Source of the DNA: Escherichia coli
Lineage (GTDB): Bacteria > Pseudomonadota > Gammaproteobacteria > Enterobacterales > Enterobacteriaceae
NCBI RefSeq assembly: GCF_011045215.1
Contig: NZ_CP049201.1
Direction: 5' to 3' (one strand)
DNA: 64,000 nt
Every line of letters begins with the position of its first letter. Position 1 is the first letter of the stretch. The position numbers were made by a program, and so were the translations under genes. The notes under the pieces were generated by a model. That model saw only the letters and a program-made list of their open reading frames with translations. It was not told the origin of the DNA and made no database searches. Shown here piece after piece: positions 1,027 through 39,387 of the stretch.

Positions 1027-1434
1027 TTATTTTATTGATTTATTTTTACGCGCTTTAAGCATTTCTTCGAAGAGTTTGTTGAAGTTTTCTACTCTTGCGC
1101 GCATTTCAGACAGCAAGGCTTCCTGCTCGGAAGATGGAAGAGCATCGAATAATTCGATCAATTCTTTGTGGTTGGGAGTTAGCTCTGTTTCCACATGAAG
1201 TTCTTGTGCAGGCACTGGTGCCTTGTCTTCATCACCAAACATTAGCCATGTAGGTGAGCACTTCAGAGCATCCGCTAAAGCAAACAATCGTTTTCCGACT
1301 GGCTGGGTTTCGTCTCTTTCCCATTGTGAAATTGTGACGTGAGCAACTCCAGCGAGGCGCGCAGCTTCTCGTTGTGTTAAGCGTAATTCTTTTCGTCGCG
1401 CCAGAACTCGCTGGCCTAGGGTTCTTGTATCCAT
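1027..1434 (-). CDS. dicA: DicA-family HTH (Cro/C1-type) prophage repressor, 135 aa
   Basis: Translation ...LTQREAARLAGVAHVTISQWERDETQPVGKRLFALADALKCSPTWLMFGDEDK...MRARVENFNKLFEEMLKAR matches recalled DicA in length and motifs; divergent from a Cro-like gene. Confidence 0.85.
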   Translation of the reverse strand: MDTRTLGQRVLARRKELRLTQREAARLAGVAHVTISQWERDETQPVGKRLFALADALKCSPTWLMFGDEDKAPVPAQELHVETELTPNHKELIELFDALPSSEQEALLSEMRARVENFNKLFEEMLKARKNKSIK

Positions 1435-1511
1435 AGTTAGGTAATTCTAATTTTTCTTGACTTAGGTATCCCGCGCACAATAATGTTAGAAAAGTCTAAC
1501 AAGAGGGGGCT
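1435..1511. promoter_or_regulatory. Divergent dicA/dicC promoter-operator region with TTAG-N6-CTAA palindrome at 1486..1499
   Basis: Intergenic 77 bp between divergent repressor genes; ttagaaaagtctaa palindrome; TTGACT (1459..1464) -35-like hexamer. Confidence 0.5.
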
Positions 1512-1742
1512 TTGATGCTTAAAGTTGACGCAATTACTTTTTTTGGCAGCAAAACAAAGCTTGCCAATGCCGCAGGAGTGAGACTGGCAAGTGTTGCTGC
1601 TTGGGGGATACTGGTTCCTGAAGGTCGCGCGATGCGTCTACAGGAGGCATCTGGCGGGGAGCTTCAGTATGATCCCAAAGTTTATGACGAATATCGTAAG
1701 ACGAAGCGGACGGGGCGGTTGAACAATGAAAATCACTCCTGA
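1512..1742 (+). CDS. dicC: DicC-like Cro-type regulator, 76 aa
   Basis: Translation ...FGSKTKLANAAGVRLASVAAWG...EGRAMRLQEASGGELQYDPKVYDEYRK matches recalled DicC; divergent from dicA. Confidence 0.75.
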   Translation: MMLKVDAITFFGSKTKLANAAGVRLASVAAWGILVPEGRAMRLQEASGGELQYDPKVYDEYRKTKRTGRLNNENHS

Positions 1743-2247
1743 ACAGGCTCGTGAGGCTCTGGATGCCTGGATATGTCGACCAGGAATGACACAGGAGCAG
1801 GCGACGATATTAATCACTGAAGCATTCTGGGCTTTGAAAGAGCGCCCGAACATCGATGTTCAGCGTGTCACATATGAAGGTGGCGCGGTTGATCAGCGAG
1901 CGCTTAGCGTTAATCGAGTGAAGATATTCGAACGCTGGAAGGCTATCGACACCAGGGATAAGCGTGAAAAGTTCACAGCGCTAGTGCCTGCAATTATGGA
2001 GGCTATCCGGATTAGTGATTTCAGGTTGTATCGTGAGATCAGTGATGGAAAAAGTATTACGTACATGATCGCCGGGTTAAATAAAGAATATGGCGATGTG
2101 GTGGAATCTGGACTGCTTTTTGCAGATCCTGCCGTTGTAGATCGTGAAACTGACGAACTTATAGAAAAAGCAATTGCTTTCAAGCTTGCGTATCGACAGC
2201 AATACCAACAAAAAGCTGGATGGAATTATGAGTCTTCTTTTTGCTGA
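1726..2247 (+). CDS. Hypothetical early-region protein (cII-position), 173 aa
   Basis: ORF between cro-like gene and replication initiator, overlapping both by a few codons; no motif recognised. Confidence 0.5.
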   Translation: MKITPEQAREALDAWICRPGMTQEQATILITEAFWALKERPNIDVQRVTYEGGAVDQRALSVNRVKIFERWKAIDTRDKREKFTALVPAIMEAIRISDFRLYREISDGKSITYMIAGLNKEYGDVVESGLLFADPAVVDRETDELIEKAIAFKLAYRQQYQQKAGWNYESSFC

Positions 2248-3193
2248 ACGCCCACTGGTTATAAACACGCAGCTGGCAATGAAAATCGGCTTAAACGAAG
2301 CCATTGTTTTGCAACAACTGCACTACTGGTTGAGAGATACCAACTCCGGTATGGAATGTGATGGTGTTCGCTGGATTTATAACACAACGGAACAATGGCT
2401 GGAACAGTTCCCATTCTGGTCAGAGTCAACGTTAAAACGCGCGTTTGCAAGTCTGAAAACGCTGGGGCTTTTGCGTTGTGAAAAGCTCAATAAATCAAAG
2501 CGCGATATGACCAATTTCTACACGATCAACTATGGGAGCGAGCTTTTAGATGGTGGCAAATTGAACGAATCCATCGGTTCAAAATGCGCCGCTCCATCAG
2601 GTCAAAATGACACGATGGAAGAGGTCAAAATGAAACGCTCCATTGGTTCAAAACGACCCAATGTCATCGGGTCAAAATGGCCTGATGATCTTACAGAGAA
2701 TACAACAGAGATTACTACAGAGAATAAAAACACTTTTCGTCCGGAAGCTTCGCAACCGGACCCGCAGACGACTGAACAGGATTTTTTAACCCGGAACCCC
2801 GACGCGGTTGTGTTTAGTGTGAAAAAACGCCAGTGGGGTAGCAGGGAGGATTTGGCGTGTGCGCAGTGGATTTGGGGGCGGATCGTGAACCTTTACGAAC
2901 AGGCTGCCAGCGACGATGGAGAGATCATGCGACCAAAAGAGCCTAACTGGACAGCCTGGGCCAATGACGTGCGCACAATGCGGATGCTGGATGGCAGAAG
3001 CCACAGACAAATTTGCGAAATGTTTGGTCGGGTACAGCGGGATCCATTCTGGGTAAAAAACATCATGAGCCCGTCAAAACTCCGCGAAAAATGGGACGAA
3101 CTGGTCATCCGCCTGGGACGTTCACCTGTACAGCGTTGTGTGAATCATATTTCTGAACCGGATACAGAAATTCCGCCTGGTTTCAGAGGATAA
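2228..3193 (+). CDS. Phage replication initiator (lambda O-like), contains internal origin iterons
   Basis: Internal ATG at 2228 (M19 of ORF 2174..3193); gene contains five 23-bp-spaced iterons plus an AT-rich tract, the hallmark of O-type initiators. Confidence 0.6.
   Translation: MSLLFAERPLVINTQLAMKIGLNEAIVLQQLHYWLRDTNSGMECDGVRWIYNTTEQWLEQFPFWSESTLKRAFASLKTLGLLRCEKLNKSKRDMTNFYTINYGSELLDGGKLNESIGSKCAAPSGQNDTMEEVKMKRSIGSKRPNVIGSKWPDDLTENTTEITTENKNTFRPEASQPDPQTTEQDFLTRNPDAVVFSVKKRQWGSREDLACAQWIWGRIVNLYEQAASDDGEIMRPKEPNWTAWANDVRTMRMLDGRSHRQICEMFGRVQRDPFWVKNIMSPSKLREKWDELVIRLGRSPVQRCVNHISEPDTEIPPGFRG
2570..2679 (+). repeat. Origin iterons: five copies of ~TCCATCGGTTCAAAATG at ~23-bp spacing, followed by AT-rich tract 2690..2740
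   Basis: Copies begin at 2570, 2593, ~2616, 2639, ~2663; then acagagaatacaacagagattactacagagaataaaaac. Confidence 0.6.
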
Positions 3194-3233
3194 GTTTTGA
3201 TTTCAGGTCATGAGGTAATTTTAAGGGGGACTT

Positions 3234-3635
3234 GTGGCAAAAGTTTTTACACAAGAAGAGCGGGAAAAAATTAAAGGGCAGGTGGTGGAACTCGTGCGCC
3301 AGAGCGGTCGTGAGACGTTACGGCAACTGGAAGCTAAAACAGGTGCGACTAGATATCTGATGAGCGTTCTTGCCAGAGAGCTGGTAGCCAGTGGCGATGT
3401 ATACAACTCCGGCTACGGGTTATTCCCGTCTGAACAGGCGCGTAAGGACTGGCAAAACGCCCGCAAAAAACTATCGAGGGCAAAGGTGAAGAAAACAGCT
3501 GTGGTTGATCCGGACCTTATCTGGTCGTTACCTGATGGAGAAATACGTCGCTACGACAGTCGCCTAAACATAATCTGTCGCGAGTGCCGGATGAGTGAAG
3601 TTATGCAGCGCATACTGGCATTTTATCAGGGATAA
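3234..3635 (+). CDS. Hypothetical phage protein (replication-region, P-position), 133 aa
   Basis: ORF with GGGGGA RBS-like sequence upstream; no motif recognised. Confidence 0.45.
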   Translation: MAKVFTQEEREKIKGQVVELVRQSGRETLRQLEAKTGATRYLMSVLARELVASGDVYNSGYGLFPSEQARKDWQNARKKLSRAKVKKTAVVDPDLIWSLPDGEIRRYDSRLNIICRECRMSEVMQRILAFYQG

Positions 3636-3831
3636 TGTTAGGTATTTTAGACGTTACTAGATTAAAAAGCATTAGTTCAGGAGTGAATTGACATTCTCAT
3701 TTTTCATGGCACAGGGTAGATCTGGCGTGGTTGTCCGCTTTGTGCCAGAAGCGGACATAGCAGGTGCCAGATGCATTTGTTATTCTTCATTGAATTGAGC
3801 AGTATCCTTAACAGGAACTCTGAATACATAA

Positions 3832-4470
3832 ATGAAGATGAAAAACATGTCTGAAGTGTTGACCCAAGAAAAGCTTATTTTTGTTGCCCAGAGACTAAAG
3901 GCCCTCGCGCAGTCAGGCCTGACCTATTCAAAAGACGTCTTTGACAAGGAACGCTATGAAGCCTTGCGTGAAATTGCCGCTGGACTGCTGAGTTCGCAGT
4001 TTGATATTAGCCGCAATGATTTGTTTCATGTATCGGAAACGGGTTACGCGACGCCCAAAACAGATGTGCGTGCGTTTATCCTGCGTAATAATCGTATTCT
4101 GATGGTGAAAGAGGCTGCAGATGGATTATGGAGTCTTCCTGGCGGATGGGCAGATGTTGGAGATACACCTTCTGAAGCTGTGCGTCGAGAGGTCGAAGAA
4201 GAAACCGGATTAAAAGTCAGAGTGACTAAACTATTGGGAGTTTGGGATCGTAATCTTCACGGCCATCCGCCTTTACCCTGGCATGTTTACAAGCTGATTT
4301 TTCTCTGTGAAGAAGTAGGTGGCAGCCTGTCAATCAGCCATGAGTCACTCGATGCTGATTTTTTTGATGTCAACGACCTGCCTGAATTGTCGCTTTCAAG
4401 AATTGTGCCTGAGCAGATTGCTGTCAGCCTGAGAGTAGCGAAAGGTGATGAAAAAACATGGTTTGATTAA
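3832..4470 (+). CDS. NUDIX hydrolase with N-terminal extension (ADP-ribose pyrophosphatase-like)
   Basis: Nudix box visible: GGWADVGDTPSEAVRREVEEETGL; ~90 aa N-terminal domain as in ADP-ribose pyrophosphatases. Confidence 0.8.
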   Translation: MKMKNMSEVLTQEKLIFVAQRLKALAQSGLTYSKDVFDKERYEALREIAAGLLSSQFDISRNDLFHVSETGYATPKTDVRAFILRNNRILMVKEAADGLWSLPGGWADVGDTPSEAVRREVEEETGLKVRVTKLLGVWDRNLHGHPPLPWHVYKLIFLCEEVGGSLSISHESLDADFFDVNDLPELSLSRIVPEQIAVSLRVAKGDEKTWFD

Positions 4471-4493: not shown

Positions 4494-5138
4494 ATGGCAA
4501 TGATATTCAACGCTAAGGGTTTTTTATTCGATATGGACGGTACGCTGGTTGATTCAACAGCCGTAGTGGAAAACGTCTGGAGAGATTTTTGTGCAGAATA
4601 CGGTCTTGATTCTCAGGCTGTGATTGCTTACGCACACGGGCGGCAAACGATTGATACACTAACGCATTTTATTGGTGCAGGTGAGAAAACCAATAAAATC
4701 GCGGCCTCACTCGAAGAGGTTGAAATCAACACGACAGAAGGCGTTACTGAAGTAAAAGGGGCCGCTGCACTCTTATCAAAACTGCCACCGGATAGCTGGG
4801 CACTTGTCACTTCTGCAGGCAGAATGCTTGCCGAAAACAGGATGAAAGCGGCTAATCTCCCCTTACCCAGAGTAATGGTGTGTGCAGAAGATGTAATGAC
4901 GGGAAAACCAAGTCCCGAGGGTTACATCAAAGCAGCTTTGGCTTTGGGCCTTGAGCCTGGTGAATGCGTGGTATTTGAGGATGCATCTGCGGGTATAAAA
5001 GCAGGGCTGGCAAGTGGAGCTTCGGTAATAGCTGTTCAGCCTGACGCTCTGGGATCATCTGAAGCCCATGCCGTCAGCGAACTGTCTGACATTATGGTCA
5101 AGATTTCCGGAGAACGTTTCAATATCATCTGTGGTTAA
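4494..5138 (+). CDS. HAD-superfamily (subfamily IA) hydrolase/phosphatase
   Basis: HAD motif I FDMDGTLVDS near N-terminus; C-terminal motifs (VVFEDASAGIKAG). Confidence 0.8.
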   Translation: MAMIFNAKGFLFDMDGTLVDSTAVVENVWRDFCAEYGLDSQAVIAYAHGRQTIDTLTHFIGAGEKTNKIAASLEEVEINTTEGVTEVKGAAALLSKLPPDSWALVTSAGRMLAENRMKAANLPLPRVMVCAEDVMTGKPSPEGYIKAALALGLEPGECVVFEDASAGIKAGLASGASVIAVQPDALGSSEAHAVSELSDIMVKISGERFNIICG

Positions 5139-5687
5139 TCACGTTACACAATACGCATCAATGGACGCTGAGTAGTTCGCGAGTTTTAAACTTCCAACGT
5201 CCGCTTTTCGCTCAAAGCGGACTAGAAGGTTAGCTTGTATCGGACTTTGCGTATTAAATGACTAGTGGTTGAGCCCCATTTCCACAGAAAAAATCAGAGA
5301 AACTATACCCAATAGTTGTATTGAATCACTGACGAGACAGCCTCATATTCATCAGGACTGGTGTACGTCCAATACAGGAGGTTGTGGTGCTGGTTCTCAA
5401 ATGTGCGCTGGCTATTACGGCTGTAATGGCGATTTATTGTCTTGCTATTGTTCTTATGGATCGCCTTTCTGACTGATTTCATATTGGCGAGGTAACGGTA
5501 GTTAAGTAGAATGGCTGCGGGTGCTTGAGGCTATCTGCCTCGGGCATGAACACCAACGGCAGATAGAGAAAAGCCCCAGTTAACATTACGCGTCCTGCAA
5601 GACGCTTAACATTAATCTGAGGCCAATTTCATGCTAGACACATGTAGGTTAGCCTCTTACGTGCCGAAAGGCAAGGAGAAGCAGGCT

Positions 5688-5843
5688 ATGAAGCAGCAAA
5701 AGGCGATGTTAATCGCCCTGATCGTCATCTGTTTAACCGTCATAGTGACGGCACTGGTAACGAGGAAAGACCTCTGCGAGGTACGAATCCGAACCGGCCA
5801 GACGGAGGTCGCTGTCTTCACAGCTTACGAACCTGAGGAGTAA
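5688..5843 (+). CDS. hokD: Hok/Gef-family type I toxin (HokD/RelF-like), 51 aa
   Basis: Translation MKQQKAMLIALIVICLTVIVTALVTRKDLCEVRIRTGQTEVAVFTAYEPEE matches recalled HokD; in-frame upstream extension from 5631 is mok-like; sok antisense expected ~5600..5700 on minus strand. Confidence 0.85.
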   Translation: MKQQKAMLIALIVICLTVIVTALVTRKDLCEVRIRTGQTEVAVFTAYEPEE

Positions 5844-7709: not shown

Positions 7710-8069
7710 TTGTGGAGAAAGTTGATGCGTGATATGTATGAAGTTTTAGACCGCTGGGGAGCGTGGGCTGCAGCAGATAACAGTGGTGTGGACTGGCAGC
7801 CGATAGCAGCAGGCTTTAAGGGGCTTTTACCTCATGGTAAAAAAATACGCCTTCAGTGTGATGATGATGAAGGCATCATGATAGACGGCTGTGTTGCCCG
7901 CCTGTGTAAGTATAAACCAGACGAATATGAGCTGATCATTGCTCACTTCGTTATAGGTATTTCACTGCGTTCTATTGCGAAGAGACGCAGATGCTCAGAT
8001 GGAACAATCCGGAAGCAATTGCAGACTGCGTTAGGTTTCATTAATGGGGTTATGTACATGCTCAAGTAA
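7710..8069 (+). CDS. Phage antitermination protein Q-like, 119 aa
   Basis: Small basic protein with Cys cluster and C-terminal HTH-like segment (IAHFVIGISLRSIAKRRRCSDGTIRKQL), at the canonical Q position upstream of the lysis cassette. Confidence 0.6.
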   Translation: MWRKLMRDMYEVLDRWGAWAAADNSGVDWQPIAAGFKGLLPHGKKIRLQCDDDEGIMIDGCVARLCKYKPDEYELIIAHFVIGISLRSIAKRRRCSDGTIRKQLQTALGFINGVMYMLK

Positions 8070-9288
8070 TATTTGGCATTAATTTAAATAAAATACCGAT
8101 GATGCCTATGAATGTAGGCATCCATGCTAGTGATAATAAACTGTCAAGCACCTTATGACAAAAATCCTCATTGTCATTTAATTTTTTAATAGCCTCTTCT
8201 AAGCTCTCTTTAAGATCGCTGGTGTCATCCTTTATTCTATATCTTAATTGTCCAAAAAGTATTTCTTTAGAGTGTGAAATACGAGCAAGTTGTTTTTTTT
8301 GTGACACAATCATTGCAGATGTTATTATTGCTGTGATAATCAATCCAATTAAAGCAATAATCCAATCAGCTTTTGTTGTTAATTTGAAAATAGCAATTGA
8401 ACCAGCTAGTGAAATAGGTATTGCAAGAGCTTTGTTAGAAATTTCTGAAATTATTTTTGACAGTTTTTCTGAGTAATCGAGTTCAGCATCAACAACTTCT
8501 TTCCTTGCTTTATGAAAAGAAAATGCCGATATATAAGCAGCTAAGTTGTTCGTATAAAGTTCGCATATGAAATCCCACTTGTTAATTAACTCGACAAAGG
8601 AATTTCCATTTTTATTAACATACTCAATAACTGTGTTTCTGAAAGTGTTAATCTTTTCAATGTGATGGGCATCAGTAGTAGCTTCACTACTTACTAATGT
8701 TTTAACTAACTGAGTATTTACTGTTTTATCATTAAAAATTTCTTCTGTAATATTTGTTTCAATTACAGCAGAAGAAGATTTAGACTCTGAGTTTAAAATA
8801 AAGACTAAACGATAAAATGTACCTTTGCTATCTTTTTTTATATCATGGAAATGAGCAAGCATGGAAAGAGCATTGATTAGCTCACAAATGTCCTCAATTT
8901 TTTGGATATAAGAAGGTTTTGGTGTTTCTAATGAATAGAAATCATCCTCTATAATATAGAAATACTCTGGCATTATGCCTTTCTTGAGCGTGTTTATTTT
9001 TACAAACTCGTTTTTATTTTTATAAAAACGATTCGCACTTCCTTGTGAAATTTTAAACGAGTATGTAAGAAAATTTCCCTTTTCAGGAAAGTCTTCATAA
9101 TCATAAATTAAATGACCATCCACCTCTATTTCGTCAGCTGTACCAGCTTGAAAAGTAGGGTTCAAAATTCTTTTGAACAATGATTTTACGTCTGCATTAT
9201 AAGCTATACGCGCAGAAAACTTAGCCCCGTCAAAATGAGGATAGCTTGATAATCTATACAGATTAACTATTATACTAAAATCATTCAT
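8062..9288 (-). CDS. Membrane protein, 408 aa, three predicted TM helices in C-terminal third; candidate effector of two-gene cassette
   Basis: ATG overlaps upstream gene stop (ATGA at 9285..9288); hydrophobic helices (ALAIPISLAGSIAIFKL, WIIALIGLIITAIITSAMIV, LLSLAWMPTFIGIIGILFKLM); AT-rich codon usage. Confidence 0.7.
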   Translation of the reverse strand: MNDFSIIVNLYRLSSYPHFDGAKFSARIAYNADVKSLFKRILNPTFQAGTADEIEVDGHLIYDYEDFPEKGNFLTYSFKISQGSANRFYKNKNEFVKINTLKKGIMPEYFYIIEDDFYSLETPKPSYIQKIEDICELINALSMLAHFHDIKKDSKGTFYRLVFILNSESKSSSAVIETNITEEIFNDKTVNTQLVKTLVSSEATTDAHHIEKINTFRNTVIEYVNKNGNSFVELINKWDFICELYTNNLAAYISAFSFHKARKEVVDAELDYSEKLSKIISEISNKALAIPISLAGSIAIFKLTTKADWIIALIGLIITAIITSAMIVSQKKQLARISHSKEILFGQLRYRIKDDTSDLKESLEEAIKKLNDNEDFCHKVLDSLLSLAWMPTFIGIIGILFKLMPNIT

Positions 9289-10451
9289 TCTTTATCTTCT
9301 TCATTACTCGGGTTATCAGTTTCTTTCAACGCTCTTCTTATCTTAGTTAATGCTTCAACAGGCAAATTATTAAATGTTAGGCTTTGGTTTTCGTCATCAT
9401 AATATATTTTAGCATCAGTTGTGACACCGAGTAAATCCTTGTCGAAGTGAAAGCTCAATGATGGGGTTTTATATATCACATTGCGGATTTTATCTAAGGA
9501 GTTTTTATTGATTACGAACTCTGATGGGATTCTGACTTCCTCACTATTGAGGTGTTTCATTAATTTATCAACAAGTTCTGTTTTTTCTTCCTCTTTTAAA
9601 TAGGACATATGGCCTGAAGCAAGCGATTCGATATCAGAAAGCCTTGCAGAGTGCTCGTTGTCAAATTGCTTTTCTAAGTATTTGATAACATCATTTCTAA
9701 ATGACTCTGCTTGATTTTTTAAAAGAGGTTCTTTCTTAAAGAAACGCCTTATTTCATCTGGTAACTTACGGGTTGCGCCTGCTGAAGCAATCCCCTTGTC
9801 ACATCCTAATGCTGCTATAAAATATGCTGCCGCTGACTGTCCCGTAGTTTTGCTTATAAAGCTTAGATAACTTAAGTCTGTTTTTTTTAAATCATCTGCT
9901 TTTTGGTATTCTTCATAATATCTGAAATTTATTTTTGCTGCTTGGTTAATATTACCAAGTTCTAAGTGAATCATTTCCTCTGGCTCTAAATTTTCACTAA
10001 TAGTTACGCCATTAGTTTTTTTGATCATTGTAACCAATAGATAACGGAAACCAGATAAAATATAATCAGTAAAAACAACATATCCTCCAGAAGCCCAAAT
10101 CTGCTCTTGAGCAGATTTATACATTTGTTTCATAACTTCCTTCGATAATTCAATGAAATCATTTGAAACAGATTGTTGAACTAAAGAGTATTTATGAAAT
10201 AGTTCTGGTATAGGGCCTTGTTTTGTTTTATTTTTAATAAAAACACCATAATGCGCTGAGTTCCCTTTTGAACCATACAAATCAATAACACCGTCTACTA
10301 ATTTTTTTACTATATCATTTGTTTTATCTAGTTCTGTATCACGAAGATTGTATGGTTTGGAGTGATCGAAGTCTTTATTAGATTCTTTTAAGAGCTCATG
10401 AACGATTACGTGGCGTATGCTTGCTTTGCTCATTTTTTTGGTCAATTCCAT
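9285..10451 (-). CDS. NdpA/YejK-like (NA37 family) nucleoid-associated-protein homologue, 388 aa; candidate sensor of two-gene cassette
   Basis: Motif-level resemblance to recalled E. coli YejK: N-terminal IRHVIVHELLK, central GGYVVFTDY...YLLVTMIK...ISENLEP, YLSFISKTTGQSAAAYF, C-terminal SLTFNNLP. AT-rich (~30% G+C in a 60-nt spot check). Confidence 0.75.
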   Translation of the reverse strand: MELTKKMSKASIRHVIVHELLKESNKDFDHSKPYNLRDTELDKTNDIVKKLVDGVIDLYGSKGNSAHYGVFIKNKTKQGPIPELFHKYSLVQQSVSNDFIELSKEVMKQMYKSAQEQIWASGGYVVFTDYILSGFRYLLVTMIKKTNGVTISENLEPEEMIHLELGNINQAAKINFRYYEEYQKADDLKKTDLSYLSFISKTTGQSAAAYFIAALGCDKGIASAGATRKLPDEIRRFFKKEPLLKNQAESFRNDVIKYLEKQFDNEHSARLSDIESLASGHMSYLKEEEKTELVDKLMKHLNSEEVRIPSEFVINKNSLDKIRNVIYKTPSLSFHFDKDLLGVTTDAKIYYDDENQSLTFNNLPVEALTKIRRALKETDNPSNEEDKE

Positions 10452-33317: not shown

Positions 33318-33326
33318 GGGGTGAAT

Positions 33327-36300
33327 ATGGCAGTAAAGATTTCAGGTGTACTGAAAGACGGCACAGGAAAACCGGTACAGAACTGCACAATCCAGCTGAA
33401 AGCAAAACGTAACAGCACCGCGGTGGTGGTGAACACGCTGGCCTCAGAAAATCCGGATGAAGCCGGGCGTTACAGCATGGACGTTGAGTACGGTCAGTAC
33501 AGCGTTATTCTGTTGGTGGAAGGATTCCCGCCGTCACATGCCGGGACCATCACCGTGTATGAAGATTCCCGACCCGGTACGCTGAATGATTTTCTCGGTG
33601 CCATGACGGAGGATGATGCCCGTCCGGAGGCTCTGCGCCGTTTTGAACTGATGGTGGAAGAGGTGGCGCGTAACGCGTCCGCGGTGGCACAGAACACGGC
33701 AGCCGCGAAGAAGTCAGCCGGCGATGCCGGCACATCTGCCCGTGAGGCGGCAACCCATGCGACTGATGCTGCAGGCTCAGCACGCGCAGCCAGCACGTCA
33801 GCCGGACAGGCCGCTTCGTCGGCTCAGTCAGCGTCTTCCAGCGCAGGAACGGCATCAACAAAGGCCACTGAAGCATCAAAAAGTGCTGCCGCTGCAGAGT
33901 CCTCAAAAAGCGCGGCAGCTACCAGTGCCAGTGCCGCGAAAACGTCAGAAACGAATGCTGCAGCGTCACAACAATCAGCAGCCACTTCTGCATCCACCGC
34001 GACCACGAAAGCGTCAGAAGCTGCCACCTCAGCCCGGGATGCGTCGGCTTCAAAAGAGGCGGCAAAATCATCAGAAACGAACGCATCCTCGAGCGCCAGT
34101 AGCGCATCTTCCTCGGCAACAGCGGCAGGAAATTCCGCGAAGGCGGCAAAAACGTCAGAGACGAACGCCAGGTCTTCTGAAACGGCAGCGGGACAGAGCG
34201 CCTCGGCTGCGGCAGGCTCAAAAACAGCGGCTGCGTCGTCTGCCAGTGCAGCGTCAACAAGTGCCGGGCAGGCCTCAGCCAGTGCCACCGCCGCCGGAAA
34301 ATCGGCAGAAAGCGCCGCATCGTCTGCTTCAACAGCCACAACGAAGGCTGGCGAAGCCACTGAACAGGCCAGCGCAGCAGCGAGGTCTGCTTCCGCAGCG
34401 AAGACATCCGAAACGAACGCGAAAGCGTCGGAAACCAGCGCAGAATCCTCAAAAACGGCTGCCGCATCGTCAGCCAGTTCGGCGGCGTCATCGGCATCAT
34501 CGGCGTCTGCTTCAAAAGATGAGGCGACCAGACAAGCGTCAGCAGCGAAGAGCAGCGCCACGACGGCATCCACGAAGGCGACAGAGGCTGCTGGCAGTGC
34601 GACGGCGGCAGCTCAGAGCAAAAGTACGGCGGAATCCGCGGCAACGCGCGCCGAGACAGCAGCTAAACGGGCAGAGGATATTGCATCCGCCGTGGCGCTT
34701 GAGGATGCAAGTACGACGAAAAAGGGGATAGTACAGCTCAGCAGTGCGACCAACAGTACGTCTGAAACGCTGGCGGCAACGCCAAAGGCAGTAAAATCAG
34801 CCTATGACAATGCAGAGAAACGTCTGCAGAAAGACCAGAACGGCGCTGATATACCCGATAAGGGATGCTTCCTGAACAACATTAACGCGGTCAGTAAAAC
34901 AGACTTTGCTGATAAGCGTGGTATGCGTTATGTGCGGGTTAACGCTCCTGCAGGTGCAACATCTGGAAAATATTACCCTGTTGTTGTTATGCGTTCTGCT
35001 GGCTCAGTAAGCGAACTGGCATCAAGAGTCATTATCACCACGGCAACGCGAACCGCAGGCGATCCGATGAATAACTGCGAGTTTAACGGATTTGTTATGC
35101 CTGGTGGCTGGACTGACAGGGGGCGTTATGCTTATGGCATGTTCTGGCAATATCAAAACAATGAACGAGCCATTCACTCAATAATGATGAGTAATAAGGG
35201 CGATGATTTGCGCTCTGTGTTCTATGTTGATGGCGCTGCTTTCCCTGTTTTTGCGTTTATTGAAGATGGCCTGTCAATATCCGCACCTGGTGCTGATCTC
35301 GTTGTTAATGATACGACCTATAAGTTTGGGGCAACAAATCCGGCGACTGAATGTATCGCGGCGGACGTTATCCTTGATTTTAAGAGTGGGCGTGGTTTTT
35401 ATGAGTCTCATTCGTTAATCGTTAACGATAACTTGTCGTGCAAAAAACTTTTTGCCACAGACGAAATTGTAGCGCGTGGTGGTAATCAGATTCGAATGAT
35501 AGGTGGGGAGTATGGGGCATTATGGCGTAATGATGGCGCTAAAACTTACCTGCTGCTTACCAATCAAGGTGATGTTTATGGTGGCTGGAATACATTAAGA
35601 CCGTTTGCTATTGATAACGCAACCGGCGAACTGGTTATTGGAACCAAACTGTCCGCAAGTCTGAACGGTAATGCATTAACAGCAACAAAGCTGCAAACGC
35701 CAAGACGGGTTTCTGGTGTTGAGTTTGATGGTTCCAAAGATATTACTTTAACCGCCGCGCATGTGGCTGCTTTTGCCAGAAGGGCAACGGATACATATGC
35801 CGATGCGGATGGTGGCGTTCCCTGGAATGCCGAATCAGGCGCTTATAATGTCACCCGCTCTGGCGACAGCTATATTCTGGTTAACTTCTATACCGGAGTC
35901 GGAAGTTGCCGGACCCTGCAGATGAAGGCGCATTACAGAAATGGTGGTCTGTTCTACCGTTCTTCAAGAGACGGTTATGGTTTTGAGGAAGACTGGGCAG
36001 AAGTTTATACCTCGAAAAATCTTCCACCAGAAAGCTACCCAGTCGGCGCACCAATCCCGTGGCCATCAGATACCGTTCCGTCTGGTTATGCCCAGATGCA
36101 GGGGCAGACTTTTGACAAATCTGCCTACCCGAAACTTGCAGCCGCTTATCCGTCAGGCGTGATCCCTGATATGCGTGGCTGGACGATTAAGGGCAAGCCC
36201 GCCAGTGGTCGTGCCGTATTGTCTCAGGAACAGGACGGCATTAAATCGCATACCCACAGCGCCAGCGCATCCAGTACGGATTTGGGTACGAAAACCACAT

Positions 36301-36728
36301 CGTCGTTTGATTACGGAACCAAATCCACGAATAACACCGGGGCGCATACCCATAGTATTAGCGGGACTGCAAATAGTGCCGGTGCGCACCAACACAAGAG
36401 TTCCGGTGCATTTGGTGGCACGAACACGAGCATTTTTCCTAATGGTTATACTGCGATTTCAAATCCAAGCGCGGGGATTATGAGCACAACAAGCGGTACT
36501 GGCCAGACTCGTAATGCAGGGAAGACATCATCAGATGGTGCTCATACCCACTCACTGTCCGGCACTGCTGCAAGCGCAGGTGCACACGCACATACTGTCG
36601 GTATTGGTGCTCATACGCACTCCGTTGCGATTGGTTCACATGGACACACCATCACCGTTAACGCTGCTGGTAACGCGGAAAACACCGTCAAAAACATCGC
36701 ATTTAACTATATTGTGAGGCTTGCATAA
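33327..36728 (+). CDS. stf: Side tail fibre (lambda Stf-like), ~1134 aa with long Ala/Ser/Thr-rich repeat region and His-rich C-terminal repeats
   Basis: N-terminus [26 protein letters not shown] and C-terminus [31 protein letters not shown] match recalled lambda Stf; repeats SAA.TSETNA and GAHTHS. Confidence 0.85.
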
Positions 36729-38880: not shown

Positions 38881-39387
38881 TCAGGAGTTATCCTGAGCTT
38901 TTTTATTAACGTTATTAAATGCCAGGTCTGTTAATTTGACATCAGTAGCTTTTTCCTCTTCCAGTGTTTCTTTCAGGAGTTTAGCCGCTTTTTTATATCC
39001 TAATTGCTCAGCGAGTGTTACCAAAGTGCCATAACTGGCAATTTCATAGTGCTCTACTTTTTGTGCTGCAGCAATCAATGCAGCATCACGTACTTCATTT
39101 TTATCAGTGCTTTCAATTACCTCATTCGCCTCTTCGATAAGTCCTTCCATTGCGGCACACTTAATTCTTTTCAATTTAAGACCATCTTCAGAATCAACAA
39201 TCTGATCGATGCGTTCAATTTGACCATGTGTCTCATCAAGATGTGACTGAAAAGCAGCGGTTAATTTATCACTATATGCAGAGCGACTAAGTTTAGACAG
39301 TGCCTTTGTTAGTTGTTTCTCAGCGCTGTATGTATCCGATAATAAGTGGATGAAGATATCTTCAACAGATTTAATTTGCATAATCAC
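38881..39387 (-). CDS. yciF: YciF-like ferritin-like (DUF892) stress protein, 168 aa
   Basis: Paralogue of the adjacent gene; same size. Confidence 0.75.
   Translation of the reverse strand: MIMQIKSVEDIFIHLLSDTYSAEKQLTKALSKLSRSAYSDKLTAAFQSHLDETHGQIERIDQIVDSEDGLKLKRIKCAAMEGLIEEANEVIESTDKNEVRDAALIAAAQKVEHYEIASYGTLVTLAEQLGYKKAAKLLKETLEEEKATDVKLTDLAFNNVNKKAQDNS

Follow-up and report, generated by a model that had tools for sequence, protein, structure and literature searches.

The 64,000-nucleotide stretch of Escherichia coli DNA analysed here (from contig NZ_CP049201.1, assembly GCF_011045215.1; all positions are counted from its first letter, and the whole stretch is referred to below as the window) carries the right part of a lambdoid prophage, including a gene for a replication initiator that is partly homologous to the O protein of bacteriophage lambda. 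Between the two segments of this gene that encode the domains of the initiator lie an array of 23-bp repeats (iterons), a tract of tandem 12-mers and an inverted repeat, and this candidate replication origin spans ~210 bp (Table 1).

Table 1. Features of the candidate origin, of the initiator gene in which it is embedded and of the adjoining genes (positions in the window)
Feature	Position	Strand	Remarks
DicA/CI-like repressor	1027-1434	-	First in module order
Sigma-70 promoter candidate, pR-like (TTGACT-16-AATAAT)	1457-1484	+	Upstream of the cro-like gene
Cro/YdaS-like gene	1512-1742	+
YdaT/cII-like gene	1726-2247	+	Directly before the initiator gene
Initiator gene (321 aa)	2228-3193	+	phrog_391 'replication initiation O-like', 1.9e-92; contains the candidate origin
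N-terminal winged-helix domain, ~aa 1-103	2228-2536	+	AlphaFold2 model; presumed iteron-binding
Iteron 0, GATGGTGGCAAATTGAACGAATC	2549-2571	+	Degenerate; in register, 23 bp upstream of iteron 1
Iteron 1, CATCGGTTC-AAAAT-GCGCCGCTC	2572-2594	+
Iteron 2, CATCAGGTC-AAAAT-GACACGATG	2595-2617	+	Arms complementary at 7/9 positions
Iteron 3, GAAGAGGTC-AAAAT-GAAACGCTC	2618-2640	+	Weakest dyad symmetry
Iteron 4, CATTGGTTC-AAAAC-GACCCAATG	2641-2663	+	Arms complementary at 8/9 positions
Iteron 5, CATCGGGTC-AAAAT-GGCCTGATG	2665-2687	+	Arms complementary at 7/9 positions
Three tandem 12-mers ACAGAGAnTAnn (copies ACAGAGAATACA, ACAGAGATTACT, last ACAGAGAATAAA)	2693-2728	+	AT-rich zone ~2688-2735
Inverted repeat GTCCGG-AAGCTTCGCAA-CCGGAC	2739-2761	+	Right edge of the candidate origin; dyad test 7/9
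C-terminal domain, lambda O homologue, aa 147-294	2666-3109	+	BLASTP
C-terminal 21-residue tail, VQRCVNHISEPDTEIPPGFRG	3128-3190	+	Matches the extreme C-terminus of E. coli DnaT
DUF977/LygF ('Ren-like') gene	3234-3635	+	PF06163, 6e-27; phrog_142, 1.9e-44

Anatomy of the repeat array

Direct reading of positions 2200-3300, against which the repeat copies were checked, yields TCCATCGGTTCAAAATG at 2570, TCCATCAGGTCAAAATG at 2593, TGGAAGAGGTCAAAATG at 2616 (its left half diverged), TCCATTGGTTCAAAACG at 2639 and GTCATCGGGTCAAAATG at 2663, with start-to-start spacings of 23, 23, 23 and 24 bp according to a repeat finder. Tandem Repeats Finder delineates two arrays, one with a period of 23 (2570-2643) and one with a period of 12 (2693-2726), and the self-match of 0.58 at a lag of 23 nt is the strongest periodicity anywhere in the initiator gene, exceeding that of all 200 shuffles (maximum 0.50). 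The five copies and the 23-bp periodicity that a preliminary description of the sequence had reported at these positions are thus borne out. The true unit is the whole 23-bp semi-palindrome, CATCrGGTC-AAAAY-GaCCyrATG, centred on an A-tract, and the array is complemented here by a degenerate sixth copy (iteron 0) and by the inverted repeat, which is situated just beyond the range given in that description.

With up to three mismatches allowed, the 17-mer repeat matches the 64-kb window five times, four of them within the array, against a shuffle expectation of 0.17; five matches were reached in none of 100 shuffles. The extra match, at 33639 on the minus strand, lies inside a long open reading frame (ORF) of the structural region (33321-36728) and was dismissed as fortuitous, single matches being expected at such stringency. 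The 15-mer core recovers all five copies, and its four scattered single matches elsewhere in the window agree with the 4.4 expected by chance. Neither scan detected a second iteron array in the window.

The five clear copies and the degenerate one occupy nt 322-460 of the 966-nt gene, between its two domains. Three of the units have at least seven of nine complementary arm positions around AAAAY, as against 0.27% of the other positions in the gene. The equivalent of iteron 0 is well formed in a relative, L005, and the array of L087 likewise opens with a good copy. Downstream of the iterons, the 12-mer tract, presumed to be the DNA unwinding and helicase-entry element, has a GC content of 0.34, and the least stable 40-bp duplex of the gene is at 2690-2730 (-45.6 kcal/mol versus a mean of -55.4, sd 4.0). 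The inverted repeat that follows is kept in the relatives L005, L086 and L004. DnaA boxes were also considered as a part of the origin and rejected: only two relaxed TTWTNCACA matches were found, and neither of them (2818 and 3245) falls within the core of iterons and 12-mers.

The iterons as DNA-level repeats

The iteron copies fall into frames 0, 2, 1, 0 and 0, encoding the peptides SIGSKC, PSGQND, EEVKMK, SIGSKR and VIGSKW, respectively. Because their 23-bp period places the repeats in all three frames, they cannot encode a peptide repeat. The distribution of polymorphisms among 79 close relatives in IMG/VR (50 distinct sequences, 91-100% nucleotide identity) conforms to this conclusion. 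Third codon positions account for 45 of the 58 variable sites (78%) in the N-domain zone and for 92 of 153 (60%) in the C-domain zone, but for only 4 of 21 (19%) in the origin zone (2558-2707). The corresponding Fisher p-values, 3.6e-6 for the comparison with the N-domain and 6.8e-4 for that with the C-domain, overstate the evidence, since close relatives are phylogenetically non-independent.

Three relatives differ from the window by rearrangements within the array or the tract. L056 has an exact 23-bp deletion of one iteron (equivalent to window positions 2599-2621), which frameshifts the gene; L077 has gained 24 bp, that is, two extra 12-mers (at the equivalent of ~2692); and in L024, a ~1.3-kb element of the IS3 family is inserted in the 12-mer tract (equivalent to ~2704). 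The iterons are repeats at the level of the DNA and not of the peptide.

Sequence conservation of the 12-mer tract

In homologues defined at the protein level, all 17 glutamate codons of the tract are GAG, compared with 45% GAG elsewhere in the same genes, and its threonine codons are exclusively ACA or ACT. At least 120 IMG/VR contigs contain the 19-mer ACAGAGAWTACWACAGAGA, and in all of them it is read in the T-E frame (T-E-x-T) of a long ORF. In 94 of these contigs, it lies directly 3' of a homologue of the N-domain encoded in the window, whereas in the remaining ones, other winged-helix-like N-domains with the signature '..Q[IL]xYW..' are encoded upstream, each with its own iterons. The C-terminal parts of the initiators that bear the 19-mer fall into at least 14 BLAST clusters.

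A codon-degenerate pattern, ACNGARANNACNACNGARANNAC, which accepts any threonine codon and either glutamate codon, allows all synonyms and thereby removes the selection bias. Across the 67 loci that it identified in an initiator context, glutamate is encoded by GAG in 134/134 cases and threonine by ACA or ACT in 268/268, and T is the last base of the variable codon in every case. The same holds when each of the 11 clusters at 60% identity is represented by a single sequence (GAG, 22/22; ACA/ACT, 44/44), whereas matches outside initiator genes use GAA, ACC and ACG freely. The 42-nt tract by itself retrieves 128 phage records, including phages of Acinetobacter, Bacillus, Staphylococcus, Klebsiella, Pseudomonas and Xanthomonas, Stx-converting phages and others, and the match nearly always lies under a gene annotated as a replication initiator. 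The 12-mer ACAGAGAnTACn is thus kept letter for letter 3' of many types of iterons, in phages of both Gram-negative and Gram-positive hosts (loci L095-L301), and none of the 12-mer strings was found in the searchable literature. The freezing of synonymous codons implies that the constraint acts on the DNA. Consequently, of the 'AT-rich tract with short repeats' in the preliminary description, the tract itself stands, but it is more than AT-rich: it is a strictly conserved, sequence-specific DNA element.

Conservation and modularity of the locus

Full-length homologues obtained in a search of representatives (77% identical at the nucleotide level, or 57, 48, 43 and 39% at the amino acid level) share the layout of the segment that runs from the N-domain, which ends in ..NFYTINY or WYSIDY, to the C-domain; a protein search with the N-domain alone gave only fragments of <200 aa. 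The repeats of the homologues have a period of ~23 bp and are lineage-specific (GGTCAAAATG, GGGCAAAA, GGTCAAATTG, AGTCAAAATG or TCGGCAAGATTTACC), and two or three ACAGAGAnTACn units directly abut them. In four of the five homologues, a lag of 23-24 nt is the top periodicity within the gene, above every shuffle. The exception is L090, the 43% homologue, which has the 12-mers and repeats in the same place but a periodicity of 0.44, within the shuffle range; lambda itself reaches no more than 0.46 by this crude measure. The half-sites co-vary between lineages (CATCGGGTC/GACCCGATG versus CATTTAGTC/GACAAAATG), and such a joint change of both half-sites is as expected of a dimer-binding site that co-evolves with its protein.

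In more distant phages, iteron-like repeats are followed by the 12-mers in Staphylococcus phage 96 and Pseudomonas phage AF, and in Vibrio phage SSP002, similar repeats are followed by a divergent AT-rich tract. A mosaic relationship is apparent in L004, which has the same C-domain as the initiator of the window but another N-domain, different repeats and no 12-mers, and with which homology begins at ~2727, the end of the tract. The N-domain, iterons and tract therefore move together as a single specificity module, a pattern long familiar from the lambdoid phages.

The module is 96-98% identical in the deposited phage genomes mEp460_ev081, PhiR42_1 and HannyBb, and of 5426 complete E. coli genomes, 1760 carry the initiator gene at ≥80% coverage, among them that of the BL21-derived laboratory strain Rosetta2-DE3. 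The N-domain family is very large: with the whole protein as the query, 12,364 cluster representatives were retrieved at E ≤ 1e-3, among them proteins from phages of Staphylococcus, Bacillus, Listeria, Vibrio, Pseudomonas and other hosts, and no Pfam model covers the family. Literature searches found nothing on this origin.

Domains of the initiator

The start codon assigned to the initiator gene is the same as in the annotated phages PhiR42_1 and mEp460_ev081, and the protein matches no Pfam family. The AlphaFold2 model of its N-terminal domain, built from a 40-sequence alignment (pLDDT 85), has the topology H-H-E-E-H-H-E-E of a winged helix. The best fold matches in the PDB, identified with Foldseek, are 4pql, 5kbj and 4pt7 (TM 0.64, E 7e-4 to 1e-2), for which the program returned only generic titles (DNA-binding-protein N-domain, Rep-DNA complex and initiator). 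With the aid of PMC7145576, we identify these three entries as the N-domains of staphylococcal RepA_N plasmid initiators, one of them in complex with iteron DNA. The predicted fold accordingly appears to be nearest to that of the staphylococcal RepA_N initiators, the match being modest. Neither the initiator nor any of the 40 family members matches the Pfam model of RepA_N (PF06970), with only sub-threshold similarities to winged-helix and DnaD_N families. Lambda O scores 132.6 bits against TIGR01610 (phage_O_Nterm), whereas the initiator has no match to this model, and BLASTP against lambda O detects no N-terminal similarity. To judge from these profiles, the element lies outside the lambda O N-terminal family and, at the sequence level, outside RepA_N.

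By contrast with the N-domain, aa 147-294 of the initiator align with aa 135-270 of lambda O (34% identity over 148 aa; E = 1e-27, BLASTP). The alignment opens at the last iteron and continues through the 12-mer tract. The designation 'O-like initiator' in the preliminary description is therefore apt for the C-domain, but not for the N-domain.

The last 21 residues align end-to-end with residues 159-179 of DnaT (PDB chains 2ru8, 6aep and 9zbt). They also match the NCBIfam model of DnaT, NF002770, at positions 160-179 only and with 16.3 bits versus a cut-off of 201; the possibility that the initiator is itself a DnaT was ruled out, given that the match is confined to the tail and falls far below the cut-off. 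The label 'Primosomal protein I' assigned by RAST in phage records is most likely due to the DnaT-like tail alone.

The DnaT-like tail and its possible part in helicase loading

Some relatives of the initiator are encoded next to a partner gene, namely a DnaC homologue in L004 and a primase-helicase in L090. In L004 (E. coli TW10573), positions 2521-4221 encode an O-like initiator with a DnaT-like tail and, directly after it, the close DnaC homologue (NF005931, 4.7e-94), a pair which mirrors the dnaT-dnaC operon of the chromosome and hints that the DnaT tail and DnaC share a phage origin. The tail (..SEPDxxIPPGFRG) is also found on initiators with other N-domains, those of L004 and L087.

Among 171 distinct initiators, a loader or helicase homologue is encoded downstream of 14 of the 90 tailed and 32 of the 81 untailed ones (odds ratio 0.28), an anti-association that is only suggestive, as the set is phylogenetically redundant, relatedness was left uncorrected and the loader query set is incomplete. 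The DnaT C-terminal motif has previously been noted on an O-derived protein, DopC (PMC5509034). As for DnaT itself, its N-domain has been proposed to recruit DnaB/DnaC (PMC13377028), and its residues 154-179 have been shown only to aid cooperative binding to single-stranded DNA (PMC4132743). Direct capture of the host DnaB-DnaC by the initiator might be envisaged, with low confidence.

Gene neighbourhood

The promoter candidate upstream of the cro-like gene is the only promoter-like site found between positions 900 and 3900. Its role is suggested by analogy with lambda pR; as it is situated before the cro-like gene, rightward transcripts started there would run across the origin. The DUF977/LygF gene directly downstream of the initiator gene occupies the slot of P in lambda, and this order is kept in phages; in L004, a DUF977/LygF gene comes after the DnaC-like gene. 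Genes for a NUDIX hydrolase (3832-4470) and a HAD-family hydrolase (4494-5138), which resemble cargo genes (morons), separate the replication module from the nin-like region. The ORF at 5631-5843 (..MKQQKAMLIALIVICLTVIVTALVTRKDLCEVRIRTGQTEVAVFTAYEPEE), recognised by eye from its sequence, is presumably a small membrane toxin of the Hok/Gef type; mokW and hokD are at a similar position in the related loci L002 and L004. Within the late-regulatory region, two convergently oriented large minus-strand ORFs (8062-10451) encode proteins of 408 aa (phrog_5023, function unknown) and 388 aa (phrog_3767, 'nucleoid associated protein'), and this pair may be an accessory or defence insert.

Discussion

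The anatomy of the locus and its comparison with related loci make it very probable that positions 2549-2761, in the linker-coding part of the initiator gene, constitute the origin for theta-type replication of a lambdoid prophage of E. coli. Apart from the partner gene, the locus has the structural features of an ori-lambda-type origin, and the ori-lambda architecture proposed in the preliminary description is upheld: iterons with dyad symmetry lie inside the initiator ORF, the melting tract is promoter-distal and followed by an inverted repeat, and the C-domain is homologous to that of lambda O.

In lambda, too, the origin (four iterons and a 38-bp AT-rich region, bases 39034-39160) is embedded in the initiator ORF and separates the parts that encode the N- and C-domains. 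Measured from the start of the gene, the iterons begin at nt 343 here and at nt 349 in O as annotated, and their spacings are 23/23/23/24 and 20/24/23, respectively. The lambda iteron, a 19-bp imperfect inverted repeat (PMC7466680), has the same form, a dyad around an A-tract (TCCCTC-AAAAC-GAGGGA), and recurs at intervals of ~23 bp. In both cases, an A-rich, easily melted tract is situated on the same side of the iterons and precedes an inverted repeat (GTCAGAG...CTCTGAC in lambda), and the origin belongs to a rightward operon in which cro- and cII-like genes precede it. The differences are equally clear-cut. The DNA-binding N-domain is unrelated in sequence to that of lambda O; the iteron arms are CATCrGGTC rather than TCCCTC; five to six abutting 23-bp units take the place of four spaced units of 18-19 bp; a strictly conserved 12-mer tract replaces generic AT-rich DNA; and there is no P gene, with a DnaT-like C-terminal tail present instead. 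Among lambdoid phages, the Stx phages 933W and P27 have six iterons in O, the outermost of which are weaker, and the extra iterons lengthen the linker of the protein (PMC7466680). The window resembles these phages in having a lambdoid origin with more than four iterons, the outermost weaker, inside the initiator gene, but unlike their lambda-type O, P and iterons, it combines another class of N-domain and iterons with the lack of P.

Other parallels are found outside the lambdoid phages. In RepA_N plasmids, the origin is part of the coding sequence of repA. The iterons of this family have been described as 'inverted repeats converging on a poly-A tract' (PMC7145576), and the poly-A-centred semi-palindromes of the window are similar to those of RepA_N initiators such as RepA of pSK41, pTZ2162 and PLE (PMC7145576), which also have variable, host-specific C-domains. 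Unlike RepA_N proteins, however, the initiator has no match to PF06970 and a TM-score of only 0.64, and it is found in a Gram-negative lambdoid context with a C-domain of the lambda O type. In RK2 oriV and in oriC, the unwinding elements contain repeated 13-mers, and the initiator (TrfA in the case of RK2) contacts one strand of the melted DNA (PMC4980987, PMC10602881); lambda O binds AT-rich single-stranded DNA (PMC7466680). The tract described here is comparable to these 13-mers in consisting of short conserved tandem repeats in the melting region beside the iterons, but differs in its sequence (ACAGAGAnTACn), in its 12-bp unit and in being located inside a coding region. The match of the last 21 residues to the C-terminus of DnaT is shared with DopC, a domesticated O-like protein (PMC5509034). 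Only the tail is common to the initiator and DnaT, and unlike DopC, which has neither the lambda O C-domain nor iterons, the locus in the window has both. Phage TP901-1, for which an experimentally mapped origin inside the rep gene has been reported, was considered as a characterised relative and set aside: its N-domain and repeats are different and 12-mers are lacking, so that only an analogy remains.

Initiation at this origin could proceed as follows. Transcription from the pR-like promoter would express the initiator and pass across the origin. Dimers of the winged-helix N-domain would then occupy the iterons, five to six semi-palindromes of 23 bp that directly adjoin one another, and the 23-bp phasing and central A-tracts of these iterons would favour a bent, 'O-some'-like nucleoprotein complex. 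The stress in this complex would melt the adjoining tract of three copies of ACAGAGAnTAnn. Finally, the lambda-O-like C-domain and the DnaT-like tail would bring in the host DnaB, probably as DnaB-DnaC, without a phage-encoded loader.

Several observations speak against such an origin or weaken the case for it, in addition to the relatedness that inflates the Fisher tests. The fold match of the N-domain is modest (TM 0.64, E 7e-4), and no sequence-level family was found for this domain in Pfam, NCBIfam and PDB sequence and profile searches, which returned only the DnaT tail and weak winged-helix noise (PadR, MarR and Cdc6), nothing of it significant in the profile search of PDB sequences. The AT-richness of the tract is moderate (GC ~0.34), and some other stretches of the region are equally AT-rich. 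A search of the ORFs that separate the initiator gene from the lysis genes revealed no P, DnaC-like loader or helicase, and the absence of the usual partner gene makes the helicase-loading step a conjecture. RefSeq annotates the gene mostly as 'hypothetical protein', and none of the phage records examined has a rep_origin annotated at the site. Furthermore, the prophage may be defective, only its right part being in the window.

Two alternative explanations are improbable but deserve consideration. One is that the repeats serve as initiator-binding sites for autoregulation, titration, incompatibility or exclusion, the true origin being elsewhere, or that they represent a decayed relic that no longer fires. 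Plasmid-borne iterons can indeed inhibit lambda replication without the AT-rich region (PMC3349717), and the lack of a nearby loader gene, the inactivation of the site in some relatives (the frameshifting 23-bp deletion in L056 and the IS3-family insertion in L024) and the partial nature of the prophage in the window would all be compatible with a non-firing locus. We nevertheless regard this explanation as unlikely, because the tripartite layout and an intact ORF are kept together across hundreds of loci, the module occupies the replication position of deposited phage genomes and the window contains no second iteron array.

The other alternative, which we likewise hold to be of low probability, is that the 12-mer tract functions mainly as a recombination linker, through which a module of N-domain plus iterons is swapped between C-terminal modules, rather than as an unwinding element. 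The position of the mosaic junction with L004, where the tract ends, and the occurrence of the tract in initiators with C-terminal parts from at least 14 BLAST clusters are in line with such a role, but L004 itself lacks the 12-mers, and in all families examined the tract directly adjoins the last iteron. Moreover, the strict preservation of the tract in both Gram-positive and Gram-negative hosts implies purifying selection in each genome, for which evolvability alone would be insufficient, and the tract is situated where lambda melts (PMC7466680, PMC3349717). Finally, it is highly implausible that the repeats are nothing but a fast-evolving protein linker, made up of peptide repeats (SIGSK, TE(N/I)TTE) or slippage products with no function at the DNA level: although the region encodes an inter-domain linker, the 12-mers are in frame (four codons) with the same T-E-x-T frame in all of the at least 120 viral loci and their copy number changes by slippage (L077), the iterons have a 23-bp period with copies 2-4 in three different frames, third-position polymorphism is depleted rather than enriched, and synonymous codons are frozen across distant lineages (GAG, 134/134; ACA/ACT, 268/268).

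Beyond an origin in the window as such, the 12-mer and the tail might be read jointly, in a proposal that we put forward tentatively and consider more doubtful than not. The ACAGAGAnTACn 12-mer could be a sequence-specific origin element, possibly a strand-specific site for the initiator or for a universally conserved component of the host replisome, which would mark the point of helicase entry. It would be common to a large superfamily of '..Q[IL]xYW..' winged-helix phage initiators that Pfam does not cover and that, in Gram-negative and Gram-positive hosts alike, come with their own iterons. In the subtype found in the window, the DnaT-like tail would replace the phage loader by way of the host DnaB-DnaC or the PriA-primosome pathway. 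If correct, this reading would also provide a function for the uncharacterised tail of DnaT.

The candidate origin described here offers a precise ~210-bp location for a replication module that about one in three complete E. coli genomes carries, and would extend the lambda layout, with iterons, melting tract and inverted repeat inside the initiator gene, to a class of initiators with a different DNA-binding domain. It also provides two handles that lambda does not, namely an invariant 12-mer beside variable iterons and a loader-less initiator with the C-terminal peptide of DnaT. As the 12-mer can be recoded synonymously, its function as DNA is separable from that of the protein, and the tailed initiator could illuminate how 'initiator-only' phages capture the helicase of their hosts. 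In metagenomes, the 12-mer may further serve as a short sequence marker by which phage origins and initiator genes can be found.

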